From Thermodesulfobacteriota bacterium (GTDB lineage: Bacteria > Desulfobacterota_D > UBA1144 > Nemesobacterales > UBA2774): DNA of 64,000 nucleotides. Of the stretch, positions 15,234 through 30,843 are shown in pieces. The stretch spans positions 352,001-416,000 of the forward strand of contig OY729416.1 in NCBI GenBank assembly GCA_963422265.1. The letters run 5' to 3'. Position numbers and translations under genes: made by a program. Under the pieces are notes generated by a model. The model was not told where the DNA came from. It saw only the letters and a list, made by a program, of their open reading frames with translations, and did not search any database. Each line of letters starts with the position of its first letter. Position 1 is the stretch's first letter.

Positions 15234-16088
15234 TCACCAACGCTTCCCATAAAGCTTTTCGGCATTATTCCAAAATATATCTTCCTTTAACTTTTCCGAT
15301 ATATCGGCGCCTTCTATTTTCCAGTATTCCGAGGCGAAATCGCTCCAGGGAATGTCCGAACCAAAAAGGAACCTGTCGCCTCCTATTCCTCTTTCCTCAA
15401 TTTCCTTGAGCAACCAGGTTGAACCAAACCCGACTGCCCACGACGAGTCGGTATAGACTTGATAGCCCTCTTGAACCAAGTCAAAGAATTTAGGCACGAA
15501 TTTTATATGGCCGCTAACCCCGCCACCCATGTGAACGACGTGTATTTTAACCTGTTTTCCGTATTCCTTAATTAGAGCCAGAGCGTTGTCAATATCAGAG
15601 CCCCCGCCTGGGCTTGTATGTATATGTAGAGGCATATCGTTATTGGCTGCTGTATCCAGAATCTTCTTCCATAGCTTAGAAGACTCATCATCCCACTGAG
15701 CAGGGTCAAAGGTGCCTCCGAGAAGACAAGTAGTTTTTAATCCAACTAAGCCTTTTTCACCAACCAACTTTAGCGCCTCTTCTGTGCGCTCCTTATCTTT
15801 AGGTAGTGCTGAAACCCAGATTAACCCTAGAAGGCGATCGGTGGATTGAACACTTTCCCCAACTAACGGATTCAACGTAAATGGTTGAGCAGAATCGGGG
15901 TAGCCGTAATTAGACATGATTAACGCGCGTTCTACTCCGTGATCATCCATTCCCTTAACGTAGTCGTCAGTTTTGTCGTAGTCTGTTGTAGGTTTGACCG
16001 CTTGAGGAAGACCATAATACGCAAAACCGGGCACGGGACCTATGTGGCTGTGATTGTCAAAAACCTTCTTTCTTTTTACAGTATTCAT
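15234..16088 (-). CDS. Amidohydrolase-2 family metal-dependent hydrolase
   Basis: DNHSH, LHIHT, VHMGG, LFGSDIP TIM-barrel motifs; SD aggagg. Confidence 0.85.
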   Translation of the reverse strand: MNTVKRKKVFDNHSHIGPVPGFAYYGLPQAVKPTTDYDKTDDYVKGMDDHGVERALIMSNYGYPDSAQPFTLNPLVGESVQSTDRLLGLIWVSALPKDKERTEEALKLVGEKGLVGLKTTCLLGGTFDPAQWDDESSKLWKKILDTAANNDMPLHIHTSPGGGSDIDNALALIKEYGKQVKIHVVHMGGGVSGHIKFVPKFFDLVQEGYQVYTDSSWAVGFGSTWLLKEIEERGIGGDRFLFGSDIPWSDFASEYWKIEGADISEKLKEDIFWNNAEKLYGKRW

Positions 16089-16111: not shown

Positions 16112-16489
16112 TTAATGCGTCCCGATAGTTTCTCCAACTCGTTTACGCATAGATTTTTCAATAGATGTAGCTGTTTCTCCTTCATCAAGGCGCGCAGCCA
16201 CTTCCTTAAAGTCATCTCCATATCCCCCACGCGACTTTTGGCTAGCTTTTTTCATAACGTTCGCTAGGGACTTTGAATCTTCTAGACCTGGGCTATTTTT
16301 TGATGCCTCAGGAGTTTGTGAGGCAACTTTCCTGTGCATAACGGACACGTTGGAGAACACTCTCTCAAGTCTATCTCTACTACCGCATTCAGGGCAACTC
16401 GATTGTAGCTCGTTTGCTTCTGAAAGGCTAAAAAAGAATATCTCAACGTCTTTATTACACTCTAAACAGTGGTATTCATATATAGGCAT
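16112..16489 (-). CDS. FmdB-family zinc-ribbon protein
   Basis: MPIYEYHCLEC...CPECGS signature. Confidence 0.88.
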   Translation of the reverse strand: MPIYEYHCLECNKDVEIFFFSLSEANELQSSCPECGSRDRLERVFSNVSVMHRKVASQTPEASKNSPGLEDSKSLANVMKKASQKSRGGYGDDFKEVAARLDEGETATSIEKSMRKRVGETIGTH

Positions 16490-16709: not shown

Positions 16710-16738
16710 TTGACAATCTATTCAATATAGTGAATATT
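16710..16738 (+). promoter_or_regulatory. Promoter TTGACA-N17-AATATT overlapped by palindrome TATTCAATATAGTGAATA (16719-16736)
   Basis: Perfect -35, 4/6 -10; 18-bp palindrome with one mismatched pair. Confidence 0.55.
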
Positions 16739-16744
16739 TTGTAA

Positions 16745-17209
16745 GTGATACCCATGGAAAAGTTTGTATTCAAAATAGTGGAGAATAAAAAGGATCTTGA
16801 AGCGTATTTTAAGTTGCGTCACAACGTATTTGTTAAGGAACAAGCGATTTTTGATGAAACCGACTTAGATGAATGCGATACAGAGCCTTTTCACAAAGCC
16901 GTGCACGTTGTAGCTTTGAAAGAGTCGGATGGTCAGATAGTGGGTGCCGTCAGGTGTTACAGGAAGGAAGGTACTACTTGGTTCGGGGGTCGCCTTAGCG
17001 CATCAAAAGGTTATCGGAATGGTAGGGTGGGAGTGGGGCTTATTAAGTTTGCGGTAAGCATAATGAAAAAAGAGAATTGCTCAAAATTTCTCGCTTACGT
17101 GCAGCCTCAAAACGTAAAGTTTTTCGTAAGATTAGGTTGGAAATCGATAGGAGAGCCCGAGATATATCACGGACTTTCTCATCAGCTTATGGAAGCCTGT
17201 TTAGATTAA
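16745..17209 (+). CDS. GNAT acetyltransferase, MSMEG_0567/Sll0786 (NitE-like) family
   Basis: LRHxVFVxEQxIF, GAVRC, WFGGRL, FLAxVQxQNVxFFxRLGW, HQLMxA. Confidence 0.85.
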   Translation: MIPMEKFVFKIVENKKDLEAYFKLRHNVFVKEQAIFDETDLDECDTEPFHKAVHVVALKESDGQIVGAVRCYRKEGTTWFGGRLSASKGYRNGRVGVGLIKFAVSIMKKENCSKFLAYVQPQNVKFFVRLGWKSIGEPEIYHGLSHQLMEACLD

Positions 17210-17223
17210 CCTAAAGGGTAGTA

Positions 17224-18186
17224 ATGAAGCAATTAATTAAGAGTCTGAAAAAATCTGATAGCTTAGTCCAGAAAGAAACTATTCAAAAAATCTGGAGCTA
17301 TTTCCCTCAAATCTCCGATATAGACGGAGGAGAAGTTCTTCTAGGGGATGATGCCGCCGCTATAGAATTTGGAAACAGTTACTTACTAATTGCAGGAGAG
17401 GGGGTTTATCCACCACTTCTAAAGTTGTCTCCCTACCTTGCGGGGCGTGTTTCGGTTCTTACAAACGTGAACGATATATATGCGATGGGTGGACGGCCTA
17501 TGGCTATTGTTGACGTGCTTATTTCCGATTGTGATGAAAACATGAAAGACGTTCTTAGCGGTATAAAGGAAAATGCAGCCCGCTACAGGGTGCCTGTAGT
17601 AGGGGGGCACGTATCGCAGGATTCTGGATGTTCCTCTCTTTCAGTTTTTATAATAGGTAAAGCTGAAAAGATACTATCAAGCTTTAACGCTCAAAAAGGG
17701 GATGACTTAGTTTTTGTATTTAATCCTAACGGCAAGTTTGTTTCTGGATTTAACTTCTGGGATTCCTCCAGCACCCTCGAAAGCAGCAAAGCGATTAAGG
17801 ATTTAGAGTTAATTGCGGAAGCTGCAGAGGAAGGCTTAGCAGACGCCGCTAAAGACGTAAGTATGAGTGGATTGATAGGCTCCCTCTTGATGATTCTTGA
17901 GAGCTCTCAAGTAGGAGCGGAAATCAACGTTGATACTATTTTGCGACCTTGCAACGTTCCGTTAGCCAAGTGGTTAGTAACGTTTCCTAGCTTTGGTTTC
18001 ATTTTCTCATTAAGACCCGAAAAGACATCGGTGTTTAAGGATAAGTTCAGCGCTTCATCTCTGAGTTGTGAGAGTATTGGAAGGGTCGTAAAGGAGAAGA
18101 GGGTTTATTTTATTAAGGGTGAAAGGGAAAAGGAGCTTTTTTGGAATATCGAGGAGACACCATTTATTGGGGTTAACCTGAGGTAG
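17224..18186 (+). CDS. AIR-synthase/SelD/HypE-fold protein, Sll0787 (NitF-like) family
   Basis: GDDAAAI, NVNDIYAMGGRP, VPVVGGH, AKDVSMSGLIG, WLxTFPSFGF. Confidence 0.87.
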   Translation: MKQLIKSLKKSDSLVQKETIQKIWSYFPQISDIDGGEVLLGDDAAAIEFGNSYLLIAGEGVYPPLLKLSPYLAGRVSVLTNVNDIYAMGGRPMAIVDVLISDCDENMKDVLSGIKENAARYRVPVVGGHVSQDSGCSSLSVFIIGKAEKILSSFNAQKGDDLVFVFNPNGKFVSGFNFWDSSSTLESSKAIKDLELIAEAAEEGLADAAKDVSMSGLIGSLLMILESSQVGAEINVDTILRPCNVPLAKWLVTFPSFGFIFSLRPEKTSVFKDKFSASSLSCESIGRVVKEKRVYFIKGEREKELFWNIEETPFIGVNLR

Positions 18187-18193
18187 GATAAGG

Positions 18194-18778
18194 ATGGAGA
18201 AGGAAGCCAATCAAATTGATCATATCGTTTCTAAACTCGGAGAAAAGATAAAGCTACTCCGTATTGAAAAGAGTTTATCTCTAAGGGATTTGTCTAGTAA
18301 ATCTGGAATCTCTGCTGCGGCTATACACAAGTTGGAGTCAAATGGTATGACTCCAACTATTACTACTATGATGAAAATAGCCGATGCGCTAGAAAGAAAC
18401 GTCAGTTATTTCATAGAGGAAGAAGGGAACAAGGACGTTGTATTTATTCCTGTGACTAAGCGAGAACCTATTCTGACTTTTAAGAAAGGGCTAGACTTAA
18501 AAGGTATTTCAGCGAAACAATACGGTGATTTTATTATGACGGCGGCTTACGCAACGGTAGAAGTAGGAGCGTCTAGCGGACGGACGCCGATGCAGCACCG
18601 AGGTGAGGAGTTGATCTATTGTCTTAGGGGCAAGATAGAGTTCAGTGTGCAGGATGAGGTCTATGTTTTAGATCCGGGGGACAGTATAAATTTCAGGACA
18701 AACTTAAAGCATAGGTGGAAAAATATCGGGGATAGGCAAGCAAAGTTAATATGGGTACTCGCAGTTCCGCCTTCGTGA
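18194..18778 (+). CDS. XRE HTH + cupin transcriptional regulator (PuuR/SutR-like)
   Basis: N-terminal HTH (LSLRDLS..SGIS..I.KLE); cupin HxGEE...GDS...HRW. Confidence 0.92.
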   Translation: MEKEANQIDHIVSKLGEKIKLLRIEKSLSLRDLSSKSGISAAAIHKLESNGMTPTITTMMKIADALERNVSYFIEEEGNKDVVFIPVTKREPILTFKKGLDLKGISAKQYGDFIMTAAYATVEVGASSGRTPMQHRGEELIYCLRGKIEFSVQDEVYVLDPGDSINFRTNLKHRWKNIGDRQAKLIWVLAVPPS

Positions 18779-18816
18779 GCGGCGTGTGAGCGAATGAAAG
18801 GGAGAATGCTCTAGAA

Positions 18817-20097
18817 TTGAACAAATCGAAACAAGAGTACATGGCAGACCTAATTAGAGACGCAAACGCACTCGCTATGAAGAATATATTATCTGCCGAG
18901 CCTGTGGTTGCAGATGTAGATACTGCACTTAACGTAATACCGGGAATGGATAGCAACGTGATACTTCATTCGGGACCGCCTATCAGTTGGCAGAGAATGT
19001 GTGACCCGATGAAAAGAGCAGTTAGGGGGGCTTTAATGTTTGAGGGGCTTGCGAGAGACGATCTTGAAGCGGAAAGGCTTATGAGATCAAATAAAATAAA
19101 GCTCTCTCCCAACCACCACTGTAATTCTGTTGGTCCCATGACGGGAGTCGTATCGGCTTCTATGCCCGTTATTATTACAAAGGACTTAACTCATGGGAAC
19201 AAGGCTTATTCTACGTTTAACGAAGGTGGAGGAAGGGCGTTGTGGTTTGGTGCTGTCGAAAAAGAGACAATAGAGAGACTTAGGTTTATCAGGGACGTCT
19301 TCGGTCCCGTCATGCAAAGGGTAATTAAGAAAATAGGGGATATACCTATATGGGGCATATTAGCACAGGGGATTCAGATGGGAGATGAATGTCACAATAG
19401 GCATACTGCATCTACCAACATATTTGTAAAAAGTATTATAGAGCCTCTTTTTTCTTTGAAAATCTCAACGGCTCGTGCTCTTCAAGTTTACAGGTTCATT
19501 GCAGGAAACAGCCATTTTTTTCTCAATATAACTATGACTGGATGCAAGCTCGCAATGGACTCGGCAAAAAATATACCTAATTCAACAATTGTAACGACGA
19601 TGTCACGAAATGGCACTGATTTTGGGATTAGGGTCAGTGGTCTTGGGGACAAGTGGTTTACTTATAGCGCCCCTTATTTACGTGACGCGCTCTACAATCC
19701 GGGCTACGACTATGAAGACGGCGCTCCAGATATAGGTGATAGCTCAATAATTGAGACAATGGGTCTTGGGGGATTCGTAATTGCTGCCGCACCTTCAATG
19801 GCTTCTTTTGCTGGAGGCGGATTTCAGGAAGCGGTTAATATAACAAGAGAAATGAGCCAGATAACGTCTTCTAAGAACCCTAAGTTTGGTATTACGTCAT
19901 TAAACTTTGACGGCGCTCCGACTGGCATAGACATTCGTAAAGTTGTTGAAACTGGGATATTGCCAAGTATAAATAGCGCCGTTGTTCATAAAAGCTCCGG
20001 GTCAGGGCAAATAGGTGCGGGGATAGTTCATGCTCCTTATGAGTGTTTTGTGAAAGCAGTTAAGGCATTTGGCGATAAATATAATCTGCACGCATGA
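18817..20097 (+). CDS. DUF1116 protein (YlbE/AllG/YahG family)
   Basis: LHSGPP, VGPMTG, MGDECHNR, MSRNG, DIGDSSIxE, D.RKVVETGI.P.IN, GQIGAG. Confidence 0.9.
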   Translation: MNKSKQEYMADLIRDANALAMKNILSAEPVVADVDTALNVIPGMDSNVILHSGPPISWQRMCDPMKRAVRGALMFEGLARDDLEAERLMRSNKIKLSPNHHCNSVGPMTGVVSASMPVIITKDLTHGNKAYSTFNEGGGRALWFGAVEKETIERLRFIRDVFGPVMQRVIKKIGDIPIWGILAQGIQMGDECHNRHTASTNIFVKSIIEPLFSLKISTARALQVYRFIAGNSHFFLNITMTGCKLAMDSAKNIPNSTIVTTMSRNGTDFGIRVSGLGDKWFTYSAPYLRDALYNPGYDYEDGAPDIGDSSIIETMGLGGFVIAAAPSMASFAGGGFQEAVNITREMSQITSSKNPKFGITSLNFDGAPTGIDIRKVVETGILPSINSAVVHKSSGSGQIGAGIVHAPYECFVKAVKAFGDKYNLHA

Positions 20098-20139
20098 TAA
20101 ACGTAGGATTGGTTAAATGAAACGGACGGCAAGTGACAA

Positions 20140-21699
20140 ATGACAATAGTAAATACGGTTAAAAGAAATAATTATCAGGACTCAATGAAGCTCATGCAGA
20201 TTAGTCGGGAGCTTAAATCTATGTCTGGGGTTATAAGTGCGTCCGCGATAATGGCGACCGAGGCTAATTTGGCGATGTTAAAGGAGGCGGGCTTGATTGA
20301 AAATATCCCCGAGTTAGTTACGGCTAATGATTTAATTGTAGCCATTAAAGCTCAATCCGATGAGGTTGCGAAGGAAGCTATAAGTGAATTGGACTCCCTT
20401 ATAAAGCCTACTGGTTCAACTCTCTCATCGAACTTAGAATATAAGAATTTCGGTTTGGCTTTTAACTCGCTGATTGGGGCTAACCTCACGGTTATTTCCG
20501 TGCCTGGGGAATATGCAAAACTAGAGGTTGCTAAGGCGATTGATAGTGGGCTTCATACGTTTCTGTTCAGTGATAACCTAACGGTTGAGGAAGAGATAGA
20601 GCTGAAGCAAAGAGCTAGGGATAAAGGGCTCTTGGTTATGGGCCCTGGATGTGGAACAGCATTGATAGATGGTATTGGCATAGGATTTGCCAACTTTATC
20701 AATAAAGGCCCAATTGGCGTGATTGCCGCCTCTGGGACGGGGCTTCAAGAGATCACCTGCCTTATTAATAATTTTGGATCAGGCATCACTCACGGAATTG
20801 GAGTTGGGGGAAGGGATTTATCTGAGGAAGTAGGGGGAATTATGACCTTAGAAGCAATAAGGATGCTTAAAAACGATGATAATACAGAGGCACTTGTAAT
20901 TGTTTCTAAACCCCCATCTCGCAGAGTTGCAGATATGGTTGTGTCCGCGGTTAGGGATTCGGGAATGCCGTCCGTTGTTTGCTTTTTGGGCAGCGATCTG
21001 ACTACTCAAGATGGACATATTTATTTTACTTCCAACTTGGAGGATGCAGCCCTTAGCGTAGTCGGACTAACTACAAAGACTGATATGAAGCAAAACCTAA
21101 ACTTAGATAAAGAGTTGTGGGGGCGGGCGAAGGAAATGGTAGAGTCTTTTGATTCTAAGCAGAAGTATATAAGGGGGTTATATTCGGGGGGCACGCTTTG
21201 TTATGAAGCCCAACAAATACTTACTCCAATTCTAGGAACAATATATTCAAATGCCCCACTCAATAAAAAGCACAAACTTAAAGATTCAAGATTGAGCGTG
21301 CGAAACTCCTGTATAGACCTGGGAGAAGAGGAATTCACGATAGGGCGTCCACATCCGATGATAGACGCAGGTTTGAGGGTAGAGAGACTAATAACCGAGT
21401 CGAGTAAACCAGAAGTTGCGGTCATATTATTCGACGTGGTACTAGGCTACGTGGCGAGCTCTGACCCCGCTGGTGATTTGGTATTAGCAATTAGGGATGC
21501 TAGAAGTTTGGCGAGAAAAAGAGGGAAGAACATTGCATTTGTTTCTCACGTGTGTGGCACTGAAAATGATCCGCAGTGCCTACGAGAACAAGAACAAAAG
21601 TTAAAGGAAGAAGGAGTTCTTGTATTTCCGACCAACGCTCTTGCTGCAAGAATCGCCGGGTGGATTGTAAAAAGGGGTGAGGTGGACAAGTATGAATAA
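20140..21699 (+). CDS. fdrA: FdrA/AllF/YahF family protein (succinyl-CoA-synthetase-alpha-like)
   Basis: YQDSMKLM, ISVPGEYA, FSDN, MGPGCGT, ASGTGLQE, GGRDL, GLYSGGTL, GRPHPMID. Confidence 0.9.
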   Translation: MTIVNTVKRNNYQDSMKLMQISRELKSMSGVISASAIMATEANLAMLKEAGLIENIPELVTANDLIVAIKAQSDEVAKEAISELDSLIKPTGSTLSSNLEYKNFGLAFNSLIGANLTVISVPGEYAKLEVAKAIDSGLHTFLFSDNLTVEEEIELKQRARDKGLLVMGPGCGTALIDGIGIGFANFINKGPIGVIAASGTGLQEITCLINNFGSGITHGIGVGGRDLSEEVGGIMTLEAIRMLKNDDNTEALVIVSKPPSRRVADMVVSAVRDSGMPSVVCFLGSDLTTQDGHIYFTSNLEDAALSVVGLTTKTDMKQNLNLDKELWGRAKEMVESFDSKQKYIRGLYSGGTLCYEAQQILTPILGTIYSNAPLNKKHKLKDSRLSVRNSCIDLGEEEFTIGRPHPMIDAGLRVERLITESSKPEVAVILFDVVLGYVASSDPAGDLVLAIRDARSLARKRGKNIAFVSHVCGTENDPQCLREQEQKLKEEGVLVFPTNALAARIAGWIVKRGEVDKYE

Positions 21700-22654
21700 A
21701 GTTAATGAAACCAACAAGAGAACCGCCATCGTCGCTTTCGGGGGTAACGCTCTTATGGGAAAGGATGGAAATAGCCCCTACGTTGAGCAGATGAGGAAGA
21801 CCGATGTTATGTGTAATAAGCTCCTAAGCCTTTTTAACATGGGTTATAGAGTATTGATTACCCATGGTAATGGACCTCAGGTCGGCAATTTCCTAATGCA
21901 GCAAGAGAATCTAGCTGCAAACGTTCCTCCTCTACCGCTTGACGCATGTAACGCCATGACCCAGGGGCAAATCGGTTATATGATTGAGCAAAGTCTCAGA
22001 AATACGTTCACAAGAAACAAGATAAACAAGCCAATAATCGTTTTGATAACACAGATTGTTGTTTCAGAAGATGACCCTGCTTTTAACGAGCCTACAAAGT
22101 TTATAGGACCGTTTTTTAATAGGCAGCAAAGTGAGAAGCTAAGTAGAGAAGAAGGATGGCTTATGAGAGAGGACTCGGGGCGTGGATACAGACGTATTGT
22201 AGCTTCCCCTAAGCCAATAGATATAATAGAAAAAGAAGAGATAATGGAAATGACAAATAGAGATTTTGTCGTCATAGCTTGTGGCGGGGGAGGAATTCCT
22301 GTGGTTCGTGATAAGAGAAATATGCTTAGGGGCGTGGCAGCTGTTATTGATAAGGATTTTGCTGCCGAAAAAATAGGTAGCTACATGAGAGCAGAAGTTC
22401 TCTTGCTCGTTACGCCCGTCGAGCAAGTGGCAATTAATTACGGGACTCCTAAGCAAAAAGATTTATCTAAAGTTACGCTTGAAGAAGCGGAGCACTATCT
22501 CTCAGAAGGGCATTTTGCCCTGGGAAGCATGGGACCTAAAATTGAAGCTGCTATACAATTTATTCGTTCAGGTGGGGATAAAGTAGTAATAACGTCTATT
22601 GACAATATAGAATCAGCAATAAACGGAGGAGCGGGAACGGAGATAACCCGATAA
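21692..22654 (+). CDS. arcC: Carbamate kinase
   Basis: GGNAL, THGNGPQVG, PTKFIG, GGGGIPV, VIDKD, GSMGPK. Confidence 0.95.
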   Translation: MNKVNETNKRTAIVAFGGNALMGKDGNSPYVEQMRKTDVMCNKLLSLFNMGYRVLITHGNGPQVGNFLMQQENLAANVPPLPLDACNAMTQGQIGYMIEQSLRNTFTRNKINKPIIVLITQIVVSEDDPAFNEPTKFIGPFFNRQQSEKLSREEGWLMREDSGRGYRRIVASPKPIDIIEKEEIMEMTNRDFVVIACGGGGIPVVRDKRNMLRGVAAVIDKDFAAEKIGSYMRAEVLLLVTPVEQVAINYGTPKQKDLSKVTLEEAEHYLSEGHFALGSMGPKIEAAIQFIRSGGDKVVITSIDNIESAINGGAGTEITR

Positions 22655-22725: not shown

Positions 22726-22758
22726 TTGAACTTACTCTCTGTTTATAATATAATGAAC
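22726..22758 (+). promoter_or_regulatory. Promoter TTGAAC-N17-TATAAT overlapped by imperfect palindrome GTTTATAATATAATGAAC
   Basis: Perfect -10 at 22749-22754 with 17-bp spacer; palindrome 22741-22758. Confidence 0.65.
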
Positions 22759-22870: not shown

Positions 22871-23362
22871 ATGGCGGTAGATAGAATAAAGGCCGATAGG
22901 CCAGAAGTAGGAAAACCTTTGGTTAACTACGAGGAAAAGCTTTTCCCCGATCATAAGGCGAGAGAGGGAGAGAAGGCGCTGTTCCTTGTGCACTCAGTTC
23001 CTTACGAAGGTTCAGTAGCAGGTATCAATATGCTAACTGCCATAAGGACGAAGAGAAAGGGATACGACACGAAGGTTCTTTTCTATGGACCTGCATCGGC
23101 GATACCTGTATATAGAGGTTGGCCGAACGTAGGAGACGACGGTTACGGAGCGGGTATTCAGCTTTATCCCAATCTTGTAAACAGGATGCTAGGTGAAGGT
23201 ATAACGGTTTATGCCTGCCGTTTTTCGGCGGCGGCTCTTCTAGGTATGAACGAGTCAAGCTTTATTGAGGGTGTAATACCTATTCACCCAACTGATATAT
23301 TAGATATTGTAATAGAGCATCATAGAGCGGGTGCATTGGTGTTTAATACTTGGACTATGTAA
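22871..23362 (+). CDS. MSMEG_0572/Sll0783 (NitB-like) DsrE-fold protein
   Basis: LVxYEEKxF.D.KA..GEKAL..HxVxYEGS, RKGYxT, YACRF, C-terminal NTWT. Confidence 0.88.
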   Translation: MAVDRIKADRPEVGKPLVNYEEKLFPDHKAREGEKALFLVHSVPYEGSVAGINMLTAIRTKRKGYDTKVLFYGPASAIPVYRGWPNVGDDGYGAGIQLYPNLVNRMLGEGITVYACRFSAAALLGMNESSFIEGVIPIHPTDILDIVIEHHRAGALVFNTWTM

Positions 23363-23478: not shown

Positions 23479-24609
23479 ATGGACTCAAGGACCCTTAAAG
23501 TAGAGTTGCAGAGTCGTGGTCTAAGGATTGCTGACACAAAAAACATTAGGAGAGGCGGGGCTGGTCCTACAGGTGGAATACATTTAAGGATTCTTCCCGA
23601 CAGCGAGGCGAATATTCCAGTTGTAGGAGACTTTGTTAATTCTTCTCCCTACTACTTGGATCAAATCAACGGTGAGCACTGGATATTCAAAGATGAAGTC
23701 GCTTTGGCTCAGGTAGAGCCTATGGGCAACGGCAAGTTCACTGAACACAAAACCTCAATGGGCGTGCCGATGCAGAAGGTTGGCATACTTCACTGTCCAA
23801 CCACCTTTGCCACTACGCTTCTTCAGACCTGTGATTTCTGGCAGGACGAGAGGAGATGCAAGTTTTGTGGTATAGAACTTACGTTGAGAGACAGAAGCAC
23901 GGTTGGATTTAAGAATGCAAGGAGCCTTGTTGAAACAATATCAATCGCTAAGGAATTGGACGGCATATCAAATATCGTATTTACTTCGGGAGTAGCACCG
24001 GATGAGGAGAAAGCTCTGAAAAAATACGCTGAGATATGCTCTGCGGTAAAAAAGGCAACCGAGCTACCAATTCAGTTACAGATTATTCCTCCGGATGACT
24101 TTGCATGGTTTAAGAGGCTAAAGGATTCCGGCGTAGATGCGCTTGGCATTCATATTGAGACCTTTGATCCGGAGGTCTTTGAAAAAATAACGCCCGGAAA
24201 GGCAGGTATAGGCTTTGACAGATATGTAGAGGCTTGGAAGGAAGCCGTTAAGGTATTCGGGAGATGGCAGGTGAGCACTTACGTCCTTGTGGGGATGGGT
24301 GAGAAGTTAGAAACGGTGATGGAGGGCGCGGAGCTGTGCGCTGAGATAGGGGTTTATCCATTTATTGTTCCTTTCAGGCCGGTAGCGGGCACTCCAATGG
24401 AGAATATGAAGCCCCCTAGCCCGGAGACTATGGACTACGTCTATACGGAGGCGGCAAAAGTGCTAGCTCAATATGAGCAGGCATCTAAGAGCAGCCTAGC
24501 AGGTTGCGTCAGTTGTGGTGAGTGCTCTGCGCTTCCTGATTTTGAGAGGGTAGCGGTTAAAAGTAACGTAAAATTCAGAAAGTTCACTAAACGGATGAAA
24601 TTAAGTTAA
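23479..24609 (+). CDS. Radical SAM protein, MSMEG_0568/Sll0785 (NitD-like) family
   Basis: RRGGAGP, ATTLLQTC-X8-CxxC, PGKA, QVSTYxLxGxGE, YPFxVPFxP, C-terminal GCxxCGxCS. Confidence 0.9.
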   Translation: MDSRTLKVELQSRGLRIADTKNIRRGGAGPTGGIHLRILPDSEANIPVVGDFVNSSPYYLDQINGEHWIFKDEVALAQVEPMGNGKFTEHKTSMGVPMQKVGILHCPTTFATTLLQTCDFWQDERRCKFCGIELTLRDRSTVGFKNARSLVETISIAKELDGISNIVFTSGVAPDEEKALKKYAEICSAVKKATELPIQLQIIPPDDFAWFKRLKDSGVDALGIHIETFDPEVFEKITPGKAGIGFDRYVEAWKEAVKVFGRWQVSTYVLVGMGEKLETVMEGAELCAEIGVYPFIVPFRPVAGTPMENMKPPSPETMDYVYTEAAKVLAQYEQASKSSLAGCVSCGECSALPDFERVAVKSNVKFRKFTKRMKLS

Positions 24610-24639: not shown

Positions 24640-25971
24640 ATGGCTAAAGTGAAAATTGTTGTTATCGGGGGTGGTGCAGGTGGAATCTCTGCGGCATCTA
24701 CGTCTAAGGGTCTTCTACCTAACGCCTCGGTTACCTTGTTTACTGAATTTGAAGACGTTGCGTATAGTCCTTGCGGAATTCCTTTTGTTCTGGGTAAGGA
24801 AATACCTAGCTTTGAAAATCTCTTTCTTCAAACATCTGAGCATTATGCAAAGATTGGCATTGATCTTAAGCTCCAAACCAGGGTTACAGGGATAAATCTT
24901 GAAAATAGGACGGTAAGCGTAGGCTCTCAGACGTTTGAATGGGAAAAGCTCATAATAGCGACTGGGTTTGAATACGACGAGCCAGATATCCCTGGCATTC
25001 ATCTTAAAGGAGTTAAATATGTAAAGAATATTAGAAGAGCAATGGAGTTTGATAAAGAACTTGAAAATATGAAAAGGGCGATTGTCACGTGTGCGACCCC
25101 CCTTGGTATAGAAATGGCTGGAAACCTTGCGCACAGAGGGCTTGAGACTCATCTAGTTGACGAAGGAGCATGGCTTATGTCAGAGGTTGCTGACCCTGAT
25201 ATTATGGAGCCTGTTAAGGAATCCCTCGAGAAGATGGGTGTACAGATTCATTTCGGCACAAAGGTTCTTGAATTTCAAGGCTCTAGTGGAAAAGTCAATA
25301 GAGTTGTGACGAGCGAGGGTGAAATAGGTGCTGACGTAGTTGTGATCGCATCGCATAAAAAGCCGAATAACCGTCTGTCACGAGAAGCCGGGATAAGTCT
25401 GGGGGCAACCGGCGGTATAGTAGTTGACGATCACATGCGAACTTCAGTGGAGAATGTTTACGCGGCGGGTGACTGCACGGAGATTATTCACGGCGTAACG
25501 GAAATACCGATACAGGGGCTTTCGGGAAGTCATGCCTACTCACAGGGACGGGTTGCGGGTGCAAACGCCGCAGGACAGAACCGTTCATACGATCCAGTTT
25601 TTATTCCATGGGGCATGGTTGGAGGACAGGTTCAAATTGGTGGTGTATCAATGGGAGAGACGCTTCATAAAGCACTCGGAATACCTCATATCGTTGCCTA
25701 TTCAGTGGGAATATCAAGAGCAAGATATTACCCAGGGGTTACCAGGATACGGGTAAAGCTCATAGCTGACCCCAAGACTGGTCGCGTATTGGGTGCTCAG
25801 ATGGCTGGGGGAGAAGGGATTAAAGAAAGGGCTGACTTCTTAGCCTTTGTCATTAAGCGTGGAGTGACTATTGACGAGCTCGCTTGGATGGAGAACGTAT
25901 ATTCACCGCCTATAGGGGCGTTAATGGAACCAATTGCTTTGGCAGCCCAGGCGGGGCTAGGCAAGCTATGA
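24640..25971 (+). CDS. FAD-dependent disulfide oxidoreductase, CoA-disulfide reductase/NADH oxidase-like
   Basis: GGGAGG, YSPCGIP (single redox Cys), ATG, VYAAGDC, YSPP; NAD(P)H GxGxxG motif degenerate. Confidence 0.85.
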   Translation: MAKVKIVVIGGGAGGISAASTSKGLLPNASVTLFTEFEDVAYSPCGIPFVLGKEIPSFENLFLQTSEHYAKIGIDLKLQTRVTGINLENRTVSVGSQTFEWEKLIIATGFEYDEPDIPGIHLKGVKYVKNIRRAMEFDKELENMKRAIVTCATPLGIEMAGNLAHRGLETHLVDEGAWLMSEVADPDIMEPVKESLEKMGVQIHFGTKVLEFQGSSGKVNRVVTSEGEIGADVVVIASHKKPNNRLSREAGISLGATGGIVVDDHMRTSVENVYAAGDCTEIIHGVTEIPIQGLSGSHAYSQGRVAGANAAGQNRSYDPVFIPWGMVGGQVQIGGVSMGETLHKALGIPHIVAYSVGISRARYYPGVTRIRVKLIADPKTGRVLGAQMAGGEGIKERADFLAFVIKRGVTIDELAWMENVYSPPIGALMEPIALAAQAGLGKL

Positions 25972-26030
25972 TATTCATAATTGATAATCATATTCTGAAC
26001 TTTTATACTGCTGGCTTGTGGAGACCATAA

Positions 26031-26279
26031 ATGGCATTCGGGCAATGGTTGAGAGAGAGTGCTGAGAGATACCTGCTTCAGGCAGCTAGCGATGAAATGA
26101 TTTCTCAATATCCGGGATGCTGCGCCAAACCCTATAGAGATGGTCAATCTCAATCTTTTTTCTGGCGGAAGATATTTGTGCCCGCGTATTTGATAATTCC
26201 TTGGAGTCTCCGCAGGAGGCTGATTATCTACTCTTCATATTCAGGTAGGAAGCGTCCACAATGGAAAAAATATACTTAG
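26031..26279 (+). CDS. Small hypothetical protein (82 aa) inside the operon
   Basis: SD ggaga before ATG; fills the gap between co-oriented genes; Trp/Arg-rich amphipathic C-half; GCC motif. Confidence 0.65.
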   Translation: MAFGQWLRESAERYLLQAASDEMISQYPGCCAKPYRDGQSQSFFWRKIFVPAYLIIPWSLRRRLIIYSSYSGRKRPQWKKYT

Positions 26280-26301: not shown

Positions 26302-27360
26302 TTGCCTAATTTACCGTATAGAATACTAGCGCGAGTTACTACGCTTCCCACTCAAATGAAAAGAGAAGATAAAAGGCGTTCCTATAATGTGCAGGCGGGG
26401 TTTATTGGATGTAAGGTTATTCCTGCGTTGCATAGGTCTTATAAGAATTTATGCGTTCATAGTATATTTAACCACGCTTTATATTTAAGTACTCAAGATC
26501 ACGTTTTAATCAAAGTGATAAAGGATAAAGATTATCTGAGCCCTACTTCTTTAGCGTTAAGAGGGGCCGGTGATTTCAGTTTTAACTTAGCCCAGGTGGA
26601 GCAAGGAACGGAAATCATATTTAACGAGAATGGACTTACCTCTAAAGGCAATCTTTTTACAATTGATTTTAAGGGGGCTTCTACCTACGACTCACCCCGG
26701 TTTTCTACAAAGTGCAAGAAATTGAGCGTAGAAGAAATCAGTTTAAACCTTAGAATTTTGCAGGATGTAAGCTATACGTGCCCGTCAAAAGAAGGACTAG
26801 TTCCTCTCTTAGAAAATGTTGAGTTATACGGACCTCTCGAAGTGTTTGCGCGAAAACAGAAGCCAACCTTATCCGAAAATTCCAGACCTTATATAGATAT
26901 GCTAATGTGGGGGCTATATGGGAGAGACGTCGGCATGGCAATGAGGGGTGCGGGAGCGATTATCGGACTCGGACCCGGGCTTACTCCTTCGTGTGATGAT
27001 TTCTTGACAGGTCTCATTCTAAGTCTCAATTTGGGAGGACCCGTTCTTTTTAGAAACGAGACGATTACAGTCGATTTCTTTAAGAGAGTATCCAAAGAAA
27101 TTTGTATGGTGGCTCGGAACAAAACAACTATCTATAGCCTGAACTCACTAAGAGAAGCGGTGATTGGGGAGGGAACTAACAATGCTGTCGAGCTTATTTA
27201 CGGCATCATTGCAGAGTGCCCTAAACGCGTGGCAGATTTGTCAAAGAGGCTAGTTAAGATGGGGGAGACTACTGGAGCCGATATGGCTGTTGGAATCTGC
27301 TATGGAATTAGGTTGTTGACTTCAATTATTGAACTCAGAGAATTAAATGAATACGCATAG
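26302..27360 (+). CDS. DUF2877 protein (YlbF/AllH/YahE family)
   Basis: IGLGPGLTPSxDDFLxG and G.TTGAD...G motifs; start may be ATG 26356. Confidence 0.88.
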   Translation: MPNLPYRILARVTTLPTQMKREDKRRSYNVQAGFIGCKVIPALHRSYKNLCVHSIFNHALYLSTQDHVLIKVIKDKDYLSPTSLALRGAGDFSFNLAQVEQGTEIIFNENGLTSKGNLFTIDFKGASTYDSPRFSTKCKKLSVEEISLNLRILQDVSYTCPSKEGLVPLLENVELYGPLEVFARKQKPTLSENSRPYIDMLMWGLYGRDVGMAMRGAGAIIGLGPGLTPSCDDFLTGLILSLNLGGPVLFRNETITVDFFKRVSKEICMVARNKTTIYSLNSLREAVIGEGTNNAVELIYGIIAECPKRVADLSKRLVKMGETTGADMAVGICYGIRLLTSIIELRELNEYA

Positions 27361-28519
27361 AATAGCCCTCCTGACATATTCTACAAAACCTAGAGGTGGC
27401 GTTGCGCATACTTTGTCGCTTGCCAAAAGCCTTGCATCCCTTAGGCATAAAGTGGGTATTTATGCCCTTTCGTCAGGGGAGGATTTCTTCAAGCAGGTTG
27501 GCGTCCCCTATACGCTTATTCCATGTCCTAAAAGGAGTTATGAGAGCGTTGAAGAGAAGGTGAAAGACTATATAAACGTATATACGGAATATCTAGCTAA
27601 TAATGAAAAAATCTACGATATTTACCATGCAGAGGACTGCATTTCAGCAAATGCCCTTTTTAATTTGCGTGAAAGGGGAATCATTAAATTTTATGTGAGA
27701 ACAATTCATCATATAGACGATTTCACTTCAGAATCTCTCATAGATTGTCAACTGAATAGCATACTCAAGCCTGACTATTTAATAGTTGTCAGTAAGTTCT
27801 GGCAGCGTGTGCTCAGAGCTAAATACTCTTTAAGTTCTAACGTTATAAATAATGGGGTTGAAGTAGAGAAATTCAGGTGCAATGAGAAGGCGGGATCAAA
27901 AGAGATTGCTAAGGGAAAGTTCTCTGTTGAAGGTAAAAAAGTAATGTTGAGCATCGGGGGGATTGAACCTCGTAAGAATACTATTACCGCTCTTAGGGCT
28001 TTTAATATTGCCAGAGCCTATTTTAAGGCAAAAGGTGAGAAGCTCATATGGATTGTAGGTGGAGGTGAAACCCTTTTTGATTACAGGGGTTACCGTGAGG
28101 AATTTTACTTAGAAATTGATAAATTAAATCTGCTGTTGGATAGAGACGTTATTATACTTGGAAACGTGCCCGATAGCTCAATGCCTTTTCTATATGAAGC
28201 ATCAGACGTTTTTGTATTTCCCTCTCTTAAGGAAGGGTGGGGGCTCGTTGTCCAAGAAGCAATGGCGTCAGCAGTTCCTGTAATCGCTTCGGATATAGAG
28301 CCTATGACGGAGTATTTGAAGAATGGAGACAACTCAATTCTCATTGATCCTATGGACTATAAAACCCTAGCTAATGAAGTTATAAGAATTATTGAAAACA
28401 AGGAACTAAGAACAAGGATTATAAACAAGGGCAAGGAGACTGCTCAGGCGTATAGCTGGAAAAGCGCAGCTCTGAAACACTCCCGGTACTATTCGGATAT
28501 ACTATCATTTAATGTTTGA
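27347..28519 (+). CDS. GT4 glycosyltransferase, MSMEG_0565 family
   Basis: TYSTKPRGGVxHTL, HAEDCISANA, RTIHHIDDF, GGIEPRKN, GGETLFDY, FPSxKEGWG. Confidence 0.9.
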   Translation: MNTHRIALLTYSTKPRGGVAHTLSLAKSLASLRHKVGIYALSSGEDFFKQVGVPYTLIPCPKRSYESVEEKVKDYINVYTEYLANNEKIYDIYHAEDCISANALFNLRERGIIKFYVRTIHHIDDFTSESLIDCQLNSILKPDYLIVVSKFWQRVLRAKYSLSSNVINNGVEVEKFRCNEKAGSKEIAKGKFSVEGKKVMLSIGGIEPRKNTITALRAFNIARAYFKAKGEKLIWIVGGGETLFDYRGYREEFYLEIDKLNLLLDRDVIILGNVPDSSMPFLYEASDVFVFPSLKEGWGLVVQEAMASAVPVIASDIEPMTEYLKNGDNSILIDPMDYKTLANEVIRIIENKELRTRIINKGKETAQAYSWKSAALKHSRYYSDILSFNV

Positions 28520-28528
28520 AAGGGAATT

Positions 28529-28927
28529 ATGATAGAAGCAAAAGCCGTATGGAAGAAAAATTATCAGGTAGAGGTTAAGGCAAGACAATTTAATATAGAC
28601 GTTGACGAAGCACCTATGTTTCATGGGGATGATACTGGTATGATGCCTACAGAATTGTTTCTATCCTCGGTGGCTACGTGTTTTTGTCTTGCGCTTGTGT
28701 ACGTTGCTAGGAAACAGAACGTTGAGCTAAGTGATTTGAGAGTTAACGTAACCGGAGAGGTAAATACGAAAAACTGCACGTTTACCAGATTATTCATAAA
28801 AGTAGGGAGTTCTCTCGCTACTGAAGCATTGGAAGAGATGATAAGTGCCGCAAAGAAATACTGTTACGTTAGCAACACGGTCAATAGGTCTTGTCCCATA
28901 GAATATGATATGATAAGTGGCGTCTGA
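28529..28927 (+). CDS. OsmC/Ohr-family protein
   Basis: DE...G.DxGxxPxE...xxxC and KYCxVSxT two-Cys pattern. Confidence 0.88.
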   Translation: MIEAKAVWKKNYQVEVKARQFNIDVDEAPMFHGDDTGMMPTELFLSSVATCFCLALVYVARKQNVELSDLRVNVTGEVNTKNCTFTRLFIKVGSSLATEALEEMISAAKKYCYVSNTVNRSCPIEYDMISGV

Positions 28928-28949
28928 GCTTAAAGGAATGTGTGGTTTG

Positions 28950-29402
28950 ATGCGAAAGGTTATAATCAAATACGGCTACTTCCAGGATTCTCTAAGGCTA
29001 ATGCGCGTTTCAACAGTATTCAGACAAAGAAGCGGCGTAAAGAACGCGGTCGCAGTTATGGCAACGGAGAAAGCGAAACACGTGCTTGAAGACACGGGTC
29101 TTATAACGGATGAGGTTAGGGAGGCAAACGGCAGTGATTTGGTATTGGCGGTAGAGGCTAAATCCAATGAAATTGCCGAACGGGTGATAGGAGAAATGTT
29201 CAAGGAGATTTCAGCGGGTTTGCAAGCGAGCGAGGAAAATACACCTGACTTATTAAAAGATGGGCTCAGGGTTATAAACGTTGGTCTTGACGTGTTTAAG
29301 GATGCGCTTGAAGATCAAGGCGTGAAAACGGTGCACGTTAAGTGGGAAGTGCCAGCAAAGGGTGACGAAAAGATTATTGGTATTTTGAAGAAGATGTGTT
29401 AG
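28950..29402 (+). CDS. Mini-FdrA: duplicated FdrA N-terminal domain fused to FdrA C-terminal tail domain
   Basis: N-half FQDSLRLM...VMATE...DLVLAV matches 20140 FdrA N-terminus; C-half VINVGL..F..AL..QG....HV.W..PA.G. Confidence 0.8.
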   Translation: MRKVIIKYGYFQDSLRLMRVSTVFRQRSGVKNAVAVMATEKAKHVLEDTGLITDEVREANGSDLVLAVEAKSNEIAERVIGEMFKEISAGLQASEENTPDLLKDGLRVINVGLDVFKDALEDQGVKTVHVKWEVPAKGDEKIIGILKKMC

Positions 29403-29438
29403 CTGCGAGTTGGAAGCAGCATAGTGTAGGTGTGTAAG

Positions 29439-30005
29439 ATGAGCATACGAAAACCTGAAAGACTAAAGGACGTGCTCTCAGACCCGCAAGGGCTCGCAAG
29501 GGCATTTTCAAGGCATACTTACGGTATGCTTGTATGGGTAGATTTGTTTGGCTATAAAATTCAATTTATTGAGGATGTTAGCCTCAGAGCCATTGTTACT
29601 AGAATAATCGCTGATAATGCTAAGCACGCGAAACTCTTTGCGAATAGGGCAAAGGAGATGGGGGAAACCCCCGAGGCTTATAATCCTCCTGAGATAGGTC
29701 AAAGAATCTATAATATACTTAGAAACTATGTTAACGTGTTTGATGATTTTGCTTACGCGTGGGGAGCGCTAATACATTTTTCAGCTTTGCTTGACTTGTA
29801 TAGTAGCGTTGCGGATCCCCGAAGCCGCGACGTTATCCTGCAAGTTCAAACTGACGTCATAGTGCATTTGGTGCATCTCGAACGATATTTTGCGGTGAAT
29901 GCTAACACGCAGGAAAAAAGGAAGCGGGTACAGGAGATAAAAGCGATAGTAGATAGCGCATATTCCGATAGAGAGGATGAGGAGATAAAATGGTATGCGT
30001 TGTAG
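29439..30005 (+). CDS. Ferritin-like four-helix-bundle protein with degenerate metal ligands
   Basis: Twice-repeated helix pair ending DNAKH and DVIVH (D/ExxH-like). Confidence 0.55.
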   Translation: MSIRKPERLKDVLSDPQGLARAFSRHTYGMLVWVDLFGYKIQFIEDVSLRAIVTRIIADNAKHAKLFANRAKEMGETPEAYNPPEIGQRIYNILRNYVNVFDDFAYAWGALIHFSALLDLYSSVADPRSRDVILQVQTDVIVHLVHLERYFAVNANTQEKRKRVQEIKAIVDSAYSDREDEEIKWYAL

Positions 30006-30843
30006 CAAAATTCCGAGCTTTGAAGAGTTAAAAAAGCCTCTACGTTATCACGATCCAAAGTACTTTTATTTCAAACTTATTTCCTTTTTGTTAAGAGCCG
30101 TTGGAACTTTATCAGACGGGATCAGGGTCGGGTATGATTATGGTTTCGATTCAGGTGCCATAATGAACTACATATATGAAAATACACCTCACGGGCGACT
30201 TGGGATTGGAAAAAGCATTGATGCGACTTTTCTTAATCAGACGACTTGCAAGGCATTCAGGTCTATTAAGCAGATACAAAAGAACGTGATTTTAAAGTAC
30301 TTAAGTGAGAGGAATGATAGAAATACATTTATTGTAGATTTGGCTGCCGGCAACGCAGATTACATATATGACGTATTAGATGAAACTGTATCCGACGTAT
30401 CAGTTCTGCTTTGTGACATAAGTCGAGATACCCTTGCAGAAAGCAAAGCGATAGCAAGGAGACGAAACCTTGTTGATAAAATCCGTTATGAGGATGGAGA
30501 CACTCTTGATCCCGATAATCTGAGAGGCATTGAGCCTTTGCCTAACCTTGTTATTGAGGTTGGGCTTTTCGGTATCATCCATGATGATGAACGGATAAAG
30601 AAGCATATGCTTGATCTTAAAGAGATATTGAATCCGGATGCGTTTTTGTTTAACGTGCAGACATACAACGAGCAAATAGAGATCATAGCAAGAGCGCTTA
30701 AAAACCAGAAGGGAGAGCCTTGCGTCTGGCACCTACGCCCTGCCGAGCTTGTAATAAGTTGGGCGGAGGAAGCTGGCTTCAAAAATCCCGAAGTTACTAT
30801 GGATCCTTATAATATATATGCCGCTGTATTGATGAGAGCTTAA
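29995..30843 (+). CDS. Class I SAM-dependent methyltransferase (YnbC C-terminal/Methyltransf_20-like)
   Basis: GI..G...GFDSG...xYxYxNxPxG...GxxID..FL; VDLAAG. Confidence 0.8.
   Translation: MRCSKIPSFEELKKPLRYHDPKYFYFKLISFLLRAVGTLSDGIRVGYDYGFDSGAIMNYIYENTPHGRLGIGKSIDATFLNQTTCKAFRSIKQIQKNVILKYLSERNDRNTFIVDLAAGNADYIYDVLDETVSDVSVLLCDISRDTLAESKAIARRRNLVDKIRYEDGDTLDPDNLRGIEPLPNLVIEVGLFGIIHDDERIKKHMLDLKEILNPDAFLFNVQTYNEQIEIIARALKNQKGEPCVWHLRPAELVISWAEEAGFKNPEVTMDPYNIYAAVLMRA

Follow-up and report, generated by a model that had tools for sequence, protein, structure and literature searches.

The 64-kb window analysed here (64,000 nucleotides; positions 352,001 to 416,000 of contig OY729416.1, from a Thermodesulfobacteriota genome that is one contig of 1.78 Mb, 99.4% complete) contains a cluster of ~21 genes which is a nitrilase-less variant of the Nit1C/gpr cluster and carries the genes of an AllFGH-type carbamoyltransferase and a carbamate kinase. 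Known since 2005, Nit1C is induced by nitrogen starvation in cyanobacteria and mycobacteria; we take the sll0783-0787 genes of Synechocystis and nitBCDEFGH of Pseudomonas to be the same cluster. It was described by Podar (2005, PMC1199592), and its equivalent in M. smegmatis is the gpr cluster, MSMEG_0565-0572 (PMC6039565). Since the chemistry of Nit1C has long been unexplained, a variant with its own set of carbamoyl-phosphate enzymes is a testable clue. The locus is a co-directional array on the + strand running from 16745 to ~34464, with two divergent genes on the - strand upstream of it.

Five signature families of Nit1C were recognized in the array over their NCBIfam cut-offs, all on the + strand: a GNAT acetyltransferase of the NitE type (16745..17209; TIGR04045, 139.7 bits, cut-off 68.45), an AIR-synthase-like PurM-fold protein with AIRS and AIRS_C domains, of the NitF/sll0787 type (17224..18186; TIGR04049, a marginal 324.4 bits with a cut-off of 321.3), the DsrE-like NitB of the MSMEG_0572/Sll0783 family (22871..23362; TIGR04044, 173 bits, cut-off 109.85), a radical SAM protein of the NitD type (23479..24609; TIGR04043, 342.6 bits vs 303.7, with weaker LipS2, HmdB, PylB and BioB matches) and a GT4 glycosyltransferase of the MSMEG_0565 type (27347..28519; TIGR04047, 371.9 bits vs 259.85, with weaker BshA and MshA matches). 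The cluster motif of the radical SAM protein is C-x8-C-x2-C (CDFWQDERRCKFC) and not the usual C-x3-C-x2-C, which fits its match to the "variant_rSAM" model NF045502.

Set among these genes are those of the AllG/DUF1116 subunit (18817..20097; PF06545, E 4.5e-79, 265 bits vs 27), the FdrA/AllF subunit (20140..21699; NF004760, 474 bits, cut-off 433), a carbamate kinase of the ArcC family (21677..22654; TIGR00746, 380.4 bits, equivalog cut-off 358.25) and the AllH/DUF2877 subunit (26302..27360; PF11392, E 5.7e-19, 69 bits vs 25), together with a stand-alone FdrA N-terminal domain or "mini-FdrA" (28917..29402; NF004760 profile positions 1-98), which is 37% identical to residues 7-84 of FdrA. An earlier reading of this stretch (the original prediction) had reported AIRS-like, DUF1116, FdrA and carbamate kinase genes in one operon, with DUF2877 3.6 kb downstream. 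By the list of open reading frames (ORFs) and family scans the four genes lie on the + strand where they had been placed, and AllH begins 3648 bp past the kinase end. A regulator gene between AIRS and AllG had been overlooked, encoding a PuuR-like protein with HTH_3 and cupin domains (18194..18778; PF01381 and PF07883). From GNAT to the kinase the genes are co-directional and either overlap or lie no more than 43 bp apart, the start of the kinase gene overlapping the end of that of FdrA, and a 217-bp gap precedes NitB; from this spacing alone a single operon for AIRS-AllG-FdrA-kinase is plausible. A promoter and terminator scan gave totals no better than chance (33 promoter-like sites vs 39.8 expected, 17 terminator-like vs 15.9), its sites at 16710-16738, 22726-22754 and 25981-26009 being suggestive only.

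The AllFGH oxamate carbamoyltransferase (OXTCase) of E. coli and its catabolic kinase AllK have already been published (PMC11326118, PMC9843812). All three OXTCase subunit families were found over their cut-offs in the window, and comparison with the E. coli K-12 proteins (taken from locus L099) gave identities of 40% for FdrA, 41% for AllG (YlbE) and 40% for the kinase (YbcF); AllH is divergent and longer than YlbF (352 vs 271 aa), with only its C-terminal 119 residues aligning, at 34% identity. The GRPHPMID motif of FdrA, whose conserved His had been singled out in the original prediction, aligned with the same motif in E. coli FdrA, and H405, P406 and I408 were near-invariant among 75 FdrA sequences. 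FdrA matched PDB entry 3dmy at 292 bits. We also considered this His as a possible counterpart of the phospho-His of succinyl-CoA synthetase: matches to the alpha subunit of that enzyme in PDB were limited to FdrA residues 110-285, and the C-terminal 180 residues match only FdrA itself there. By tblastn the kinase, AllG and AllH are each single-copy in the genome, this being its sole carbamate kinase. Taken together, these comparisons show, at the level of predicted proteins, a genuine AllF-AllG-AllH-type carbamoyltransferase and carbamate kinase.

The window thus shares with E. coli allFGHK the three subunit families and the kinase, with 40-41% identity for AllF, AllG and AllK, the GRPHPMID motif and a kinase gene adjoining that of FdrA (here overlapping it). 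It differs in its gene order (AllG-FdrA-kinase, with AllH 3.6 kb off), in the longer AllH alignable only at its C-terminus, in the added stand-alone FdrA N-terminal domain, and in that the module is embedded in Nit1C-type genes within a genome without allECD-type or other allantoin genes.

Regarding the latter, neither Ldh_2/AllD nor AllC was found in the complete genome by profile searches, and E. coli AllA, AllC, AllD, AllE and AllW used as tblastn queries had no match in it. No genome protein matched the allantoinase model over its cut-off (best 238 bits vs 358), its sole match being a dihydroorotase-like gene beside the aspartate carbamoyltransferase gene, and arginine deiminase was likewise not found in the complete genome. 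The original prediction had noted no allantoin or arginine deiminase genes in the window, as we also found by Pfam on its 56 ORFs, and had named as the contrary case a plain enzyme for oxalurate, supplied by allantoin genes at another place; such genes were not found genome-wide. Without an allantoin pathway in the complete genome oxalurate is unlikely as the substrate, which supports, from gene content, that the module is not a plain allantoin/oxalurate system. The genome does have CarB (1551 bits). Nitrile hydratase (PF02979) gave 0 matches in the genome, a search whose control matched no genome either.

To study how far the arrangement is conserved, AllG was used to scan species-representative genomes, yielding 80 loci, 43 of them close (60-78% identity) and 37 others (<=50%). 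The same array is kept in the close loci, labelled for example Candidatus Dadabacteria or Thermodesulfobacteriota: the kinase was present in 38, AIRS in 38, the regulator in 38, NitB in 34, radical SAM in 32, Amidohydro_2 (a metal hydrolase, see below) in 32, the 82-aa protein in 31, AllH in 29 and FmdB in 22, and all five loci without the kinase end at a contig end. Two of them (L044 and L050) have a different order which is still interleaved, AllG-FdrA-GNAT-AIRS-kinase-NitB-Amidohydro_2. The 37 distant loci have FdrA-AllG with or without AllH and kinase, and Nit1C-type genes in none.

Among 120 genomes of the phylum, AllG was found in 53 and NitB in 51; 50 have both, three AllG alone, one NitB alone and 66 neither, the four exceptions being assemblies of 100-290 contigs that are 77-90% complete. 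In 42 of the 50 genomes with both, AllG and NitB lie on one contig, 3.4-5.1 kb apart. Related genomes and loci are non-independent samples; with this in mind, the distribution supports that AllG and NitB were gained and lost together, and the conserved layouts show that the AllFGH/carbamate-kinase genes, as predicted from their families, form an integral part of a nitrilase-less Nit1C variant. The co-occurrence, the rearranged yet interleaved orders and the lack of allantoin genes all indicate that AllFGH and the kinase are functionally tied to the Nit1C-type genes, so that this link, proposed in the original prediction, holds well.

Within one genus (g26) the cluster occurs in 9 of 36 genomes, AllG and NitB in exactly the same nine, and in a family of ~1 Mb genomes (f9) it is absent from 19 of 19. 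An in-frame stop in the L050 Amidohydro_2 gene (L050:16408-17268) and one TGA in the AllG of another genome (G093:C2:173114-173635) may mark decayed copies or assembly errors.

Compared to canonical Nit1C clusters, the window core proteins score far lower (e.g. AIRS, 324 vs 465 bits), and the Nit6803-type nitrilase, NitG (TIGR04042) and NitH (TIGR04046) are missing. No Nit6803-type nitrilase was found in the window, the best match in the genome reaching 219.5 bits vs 502.6 and lying ~0.85 Mb away; NitG and NitH had no match among the window ORFs tested, and none of the 120 phylum genomes has a TIGR04048 nitrilase over the cut-off, generic nitrilase-superfamily genes being present in 94 of them, with and without the cluster. 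The window has instead an ACMSD-superfamily metal enzyme, Amidohydro_2 (15234..16088; PF04909, E 6e-19), and an FmdB-type zinc-ribbon protein (16112..16489; PF09723/TIGR02605), both encoded on the - strand, and, on the + strand, a CoA-disulfide/persulfide reductase-like (CoADR-like) flavoprotein (24640..25971; Pyr_redox_2), a small conserved 82-aa protein (26031..26279), an OsmC/Ohr-like protein (28529..28927; PF02566), the AllFGH and kinase genes and a set of amino-acid-tailoring genes. The 82-aa protein had no family match; its motif FFWRxIFVPxYLxIPW is kept also in the distant loci L129 and L110.

A NitB profile (alignment A1) was then used to collect 80 metagenomic NitB loci. Nitrilase-like genes were sought in them by tblastn with the two generic nitrilase-superfamily proteins of the window genome, and 53 loci have such a gene directly after NitB (median gap 38 bp), 51 of these 53 assignments resting on 31-38% identity. 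Their canonical order is NitB-nitrilase-radical SAM-GNAT-AIRS with or without GT4. Two of them (L152 and L146), checked with NCBIfam, both contain the nitrilase (579 bits), NitG and NitH, with GT4 in one. Amidohydro_2 was found in 16 of the 80 loci, in 11 of these within ~150 bp of NitB on the same strand, and never together with the nitrilase (0/80); AllG occurs in nine, also never with the nitrilase, and 11 mostly short loci have neither nitrilase nor Amidohydro_2.

In seven of the 16 Amidohydro_2 loci NitB is only 47-50% identical to that of the window. One of them, L110, of high GC and with F420-type and SARP-type neighbours, contains the whole composite: FmdB, Amidohydro_2, NitB, radical SAM, GNAT, AIRS, the CoADR-like flavoprotein, a 94-aa ORF, OsmC, AllG, a 268-aa ORF, FdrA, a second zinc ribbon and GT4. 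The variant thus exists outside the lineage of the window. From these gene contents, the exchanged unit is apparently a module, with nitrilase, NitG and NitH on one side and Amidohydro_2, FmdB, the CoADR-like flavoprotein, the small protein, OsmC and AllFGH (in the window's lineage the kinase too) on the other. Among open-access papers and bioRxiv preprints, none was found to describe Nit1C-type genes together with AllFGH or a carbamate kinase.

No other protein of the variant is as well conserved as Amidohydro_2, with identities of 80-90% in close loci and of 78% in L110, where the other proteins are 38-50% identical to those of the window. In relatives it sits directly beside NitB, the position of the nitrilase in canonical clusters. 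Residues D11, H13, H15, H155, H157, H186 and D245 are invariant, so the metal ligands of the superfamily are kept. Its model, with a predicted local distance difference test (pLDDT) score of 84.7, was nearest to ACMSD, dihydroxybenzoate and resorcylate decarboxylases, LigW and the hydratase LigJ, at 15-20% identity. Amidohydro_2 could conceivably help to produce the AllFGH substrate, in a reaction that is not readable from these structure matches.

Four loci without Nit genes were examined for the settings in which AllFGH occurs elsewhere (L051, L062, L069 and L063). That of Moorella (L051) contains a PucR regulator, AllH-FdrA-AllG, a ring-opening amidohydrolase of the AtzD/TrzD family (559 bits), a xanthine/uracil permease, the kinase and a dihydroorotate-dehydrogenase-like pair; that of Sporomusa (L062), PucR, AllH-FdrA-AllG, a cyclase-type hydrolase (PF04199), the kinase and CN_hydrolase; that of Sphaerochaeta (L069), an FdrA-AllG fusion, a PF04199 hydrolase and AllH; and that of a Ktedonobacteraceae member (L063), FdrA-AllG with unrelated neighbours. 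Hence a ring-opening or metal hydrolase adjoins AllFGH in three of the four, allantoin genes in none; PucR and the kinase accompany two of the three hydrolase-paired loci and a permease one, and these regulators and kinases, with the permease in Moorella, point to catabolism in L051 and L062. Oxalurate is itself an acyl-urea, and the contexts fit a family that would handle acyl-ureas more generally. AllFGHK has also been reported beside triuret genes in nitrifiers (PMC12625717). Like these loci, the window has an AllFGH set that lies apart from allantoin genes and is accompanied by a hydrolase and, as often there, by a carbamate kinase; it differs in its Nit1C-type genes, found in none of the 37 distant loci, and in an AllG that falls across a well-supported branch from theirs.

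As to that branch, in a quick AllG tree of 81 sequences the 50 Nit-linked ones, L110 included, were on one side of a branch with 99% Shimodaira-Hasegawa approximate likelihood ratio test (SH-aLRT) support, a result to be read with the long L110 branch and the midpoint rooting in mind. A quick FdrA tree was less clean, requiring two changes for the 46 Nit-linked rows and placing L110 in a group of 54 rows (80% support) to which eight other rows also belong. Group-specific positions numbered 14 in AllG vs two in FdrA, counts confounded by relatedness.

Two further observations concern the non-Nit loci. The Moorella mulderi stretch (L051:7364-17334) may be an unrecognized pyrimidine/barbiturate-type route ending in acyl-urea phosphorolysis. 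In the Sphaerochaeta metagenome-assembled genome FdrA and AllG are fused into one protein of 1043 aa (L069:8114-11245), which supports a physical complex of both subunits.

Our preferred reading, to which we give a little less than an even chance, is that AllFGH phosphorolyses an acyl-urea or ureido-type intermediate to carbamoyl phosphate, which would then yield ATP and ammonia, in place of the hydrolytic nitrogen release by the nitrilase. AIRS, GNAT, radical SAM, the DsrE-like NitB and GT4 would be the shared core and act upstream of the nitrogen-releasing step; the intermediate would be made or taken up by the cluster's own enzymes and cleaved with phosphate by the AllFGH-type enzyme, and the kinase would convert the resulting carbamoyl phosphate to ATP, ammonia and CO2. 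This phosphorolytic, ATP-yielding route, together with Amidohydro_2, would thus replace the hydrolytic step of the nitrilase NitC in canonical clusters. The catabolic direction is suggested because the kinase is the only carbamate kinase of a genome in which CarB already supplies biosynthetic carbamoyl phosphate, because three of the four unrelated AllFGH loci adjoin a ring-opening or metal hydrolase, and because the OXTCase/kinase pair of E. coli is catabolic (PMC11326118, PMC9843812).

The natural exchange of nitrilase, NitG and NitH for enzymes that form carbamoyl phosphate, plus a kinase and a metal hydrolase, narrows the possible product of the shared core. This product likely bears a C-N group, at the oxidation level of a carboxylate, able to leave as ammonia on hydrolysis or as carbamoyl phosphate on phosphorolysis. 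The original prediction had hoped for a handle on Nit1C chemistry, and one is offered here by the well-supported tie of AllFGH and kinase to Nit1C-type genes, but the HypE-like step is not supported. Moreover, the variant shows that AllFGH enzymes, a family assigned only recently, are not limited to the breakdown of allantoin, and it suggests a way for uncultured bacteria with small genomes to obtain ATP as they scavenge nitrogen.

Several points weigh against phosphorolysis of an acyl-urea. Substrate and direction are deduced from the genes alone. That nitrilase and AllFGH exclude each other is a correlation, seen in loci which are related to one another; NitG and NitH were swapped too, leaving a gene-for-gene replacement ambiguous. 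The FdrA tree splits the Nit-linked sequences less cleanly than the AllG tree. The nearest structures of Amidohydro_2 are decarboxylases and a hydratase, not amide-ring hydrolases, a likeness that makes its assumed acyl-urea-making role weak. The OXTCase is reversible and has been assayed in the synthetic direction, with kinetics for carbamoyl phosphate and oxamate (PMC11326118). Finally, much of the cluster looks biosynthetic, with GT4, GNAT, a methyltransferase, an aminotransferase, a CysK-like enzyme and a decarboxylase.

The last two points lead to the strongest alternative, biosynthetic carbamoylation, in which the kinase would make carbamoyl phosphate out of carbamate and ATP, and the AllFGH-type enzyme would pass the carbamoyl group on to a small molecule assembled by the cluster, at an amide or amine nitrogen. 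This molecule would be derived from an amino acid, carry glycosyl and acyl groups and might be a thiol or redox metabolite. Besides GNAT and GT4, which is weakly BshA/MshA-like, the enzymes in its favour are encoded downstream of mini-FdrA, all on the + strand: a Methyltransf_20 methyltransferase (29995..30843; PF12147, E 5e-49), a class I/II pyridoxal-phosphate (PLP) aminotransferase (30870..32255; PF00155), a CysK/CBS/cysteate-synthase-like PLP beta-replacement enzyme (32255..33202; PF00291, its NCBIfam matches all below cut-offs) and an Orn/DAP-type PLP decarboxylase, LysA/FslC-like (33232..34464; PF02784 and PF00278, NCBIfam below cut-offs), whose membership of the cluster was judged within the window only; the methyltransferase, aminotransferase and CysK-like genes are kept in three related loci (L103, L108 and L109). 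The CoADR-like flavoprotein and OsmC would also suit such a product, as would the peroxide resistance conferred by the homologous gpr cluster of M. smegmatis (PMC6039565) and the reversibility of the OXTCase, with its kinetics for carbamoyl phosphate and oxamate (PMC11326118). However, the AllFGH contexts of the relatives examined look catabolic, and the enzyme that never occurs with the module is a hydrolase, the nitrilase, rather than a transferase. With CarB in the genome (1551 bits) a dedicated kinase is not needed to provide carbamoyl phosphate, and the bacterial carbamate kinases known to us work catabolically. This includes the E. coli enzyme (PMC9843812). We therefore regard biosynthetic carbamoylation as rather unlikely. 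A mycothiol/bacillithiol-like route formed by GT4, GNAT, amidohydrolase and disulfide reductase was rejected as such, BshA and MshA matches reaching ~77 bits vs 274 and 462, and is kept only within this alternative.

A thiol/disulfide theme runs through the cluster as well. Cys116 of NitB (in YACRF) does not vary among 14 sequences with identities as low as 42% (alignment A1), and the NitB profile matches the DsrE/DsrF-like structure 3mc3 with this Cys aligned (E 0.003); Pfam DsrE is sub-threshold on the window NitB and precomputed on some NitB homologues, the family having been called YchN/DsrE-like (PMC1199592, PMC6039565). The best PDB matches of the flavoprotein are the NADH oxidase 6ruz (214 bits) and the CoA-persulfide reductase 8a56 (198 bits), with the active-site Cys motif aligned, and it is also near CoA-disulfide reductases. 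It has no TIGR04046 match and stands where canonical clusters have NitH, which itself has a weak likeness to a putative bacillithiol-disulfide reductase. On these likenesses both cluster types could plausibly include a thiol/disulfide step, which keeps alive the Cys-carrier part of the original prediction; such a role for NitB is possible because its Cys is invariant in a DsrE-like setting.

On this theme one can build a reversed HypF/HypE route, in which cyanide or a nitrile made by the cluster would supply a cyano group to be held as S-cyano on NitB Cys116 (or on a cluster-made thiol), hydrated to S-carbamoyl (a thiocarbamate) and phosphorolysed by AllFGH to carbamoyl phosphate, to be turned by the kinase into ATP, ammonia and CO2; the CoADR-like flavoprotein would reset the thiol/disulfide state, and canonical clusters would hydrolyse the S-cyano species with the nitrilase. 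We consider this scheme very improbable. If true, AllFGH would be a phosphorylase acting generally on activated carbamoyl groups, and the scheme would explain why Pseudomonas needs Nit1C to grow on cyanide even though the Nit1C nitrilase has hardly any activity on this compound (PMC7815647).

The forward scheme, that of the original prediction, has carbamoyl phosphate carbamoylating a Cys, e.g. on NitB, and the PurM-fold protein dehydrating this group with ATP to a thiocyanate or nitrile as in HypF/HypE maturation of [NiFe]-hydrogenase. The AIRS protein does have the PurM fold, and carbamoyl phosphate would be a nearby metabolite in both systems; its best families, however, are sll0787 (324 bits) and methanogenesis marker 2 (242 bits), for which no function was found stated in the portions of the literature searched, followed by ThiL, SelD and PurL, HypE not being among the matches listed. 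On the HypE model (TIGR02124) it scored 18.5 bits (E 6e-4, cut-off 251.6), the weakest of the genome's four PurM-type matches, and by sequence against PDB ThiL (45 bits), SelD (42) and PurL (34) came before HypE (33.8). A C-terminal Cys that carries the carbamoyl/cyano group is the hallmark of HypE; the AIRS protein ends in PFIGVNLR, without Cys. Neither HypE nor HypF was found in the genome by profile search (best TIGR00143 match 24.5 bits vs 466.1).

The structure-model comparison proposed in the original prediction was also made. A model of the AIRS protein (24 sequences, pLDDT 92.2) confirmed the PurM fold and had HypE among its matches (3vys_C, E 3.3e-20, TMq 0.69), together with PurL (4.5e-20, TMq 0.76), SelD (1.2e-19) and ThiL (1.4e-19). 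Because all match about equally, fold comparison was dropped as a means of telling HypE from SelD, ThiL and PurL, the modelled match showing a superfamily-wide PurM fold and nothing more specific. Residues D42, D43, D84, D97 and G127-G128-H129 are invariant in the 24 sequences; by analogy with the PurM superfamily, this acidic and Gly-Gly-His invariance is consistent with an active ATP-using enzyme.

Importantly, the AIRS family occurs in 39 of the 53 canonical nitrilase loci, and AllG, FdrA and the kinase in none of the 53 over the stretches covered; the role of AIRS therefore cannot depend on a cluster-encoded source of carbamoyl phosphate. Sequence comparison places AIRS outside the HypE family, and its equivalence to HypE is not supported; it is rather a core Nit1C gene. 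Thus, even with its PurM fold, with HypE among the equal-best structural matches, with the invariant Cys of NitB in a DsrE-like motif and with carbamoyl-phosphate enzymes in the same cluster, we give the HypE-like step hardly any credence: AIRS is present in canonical loci without a detected carbamoyl-phosphate enzyme, scores 18.5 bits against the 251.6 cut-off, lacks the C-terminal Cys, has ThiL and SelD before HypE by sequence and PurL, SelD and ThiL matching as well or better by fold (PurL TMq 0.76), the genome lacks HypF, and nitrile synthesis beside the nitrilase of canonical clusters would be futile.

An ordinary oxalurate (allantoin-branch) OXTCase and kinase merely adjoining Nit1C-type genes would account for the three subunits and kinase, their 40-41% identity to E. 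coli and the kept motif, yet is just as remote given the complete genome without AllA, AllB, AllC, AllD and AllE, the co-inheritance of AllG with NitB across the phylum, the separation of Nit-linked AllG from E. coli and 30 others at 99% SH-aLRT (in the quick tree with its long branch) and the 14 group-specific AllG positions, confounded as these are by relatedness.

The remaining protein of the cluster, of 191 aa (29430..30005, +), had no significant family match; its Atlas neighbours are ferritin-like, rubrerythrin and DUF455 clusters at 0.90-0.92, so that ferritin-like is a lead only. Outside the cluster, an AccI-type restriction endonuclease (PF09545, E 2e-116) adjoins an Eco57I/N6_Mtase-type methylase on the - strand (8714-11324), a stretch with a G+C content of 0.39-0.40 vs ~0.43. 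A 992-aa protein (12200-15178, +) has two M16 peptidase units, whose halves resemble YfmH and YfmF, associated with the 5-aminopentanol modification of EF-P, at scores below the cut-offs; it is found upstream of the cluster also in L023 and L109. Finally, a DUF4301 protein (653 bits) is followed by a 433-aa protein without Pfam family, the two genes adjoining stop to start (40764-43643).

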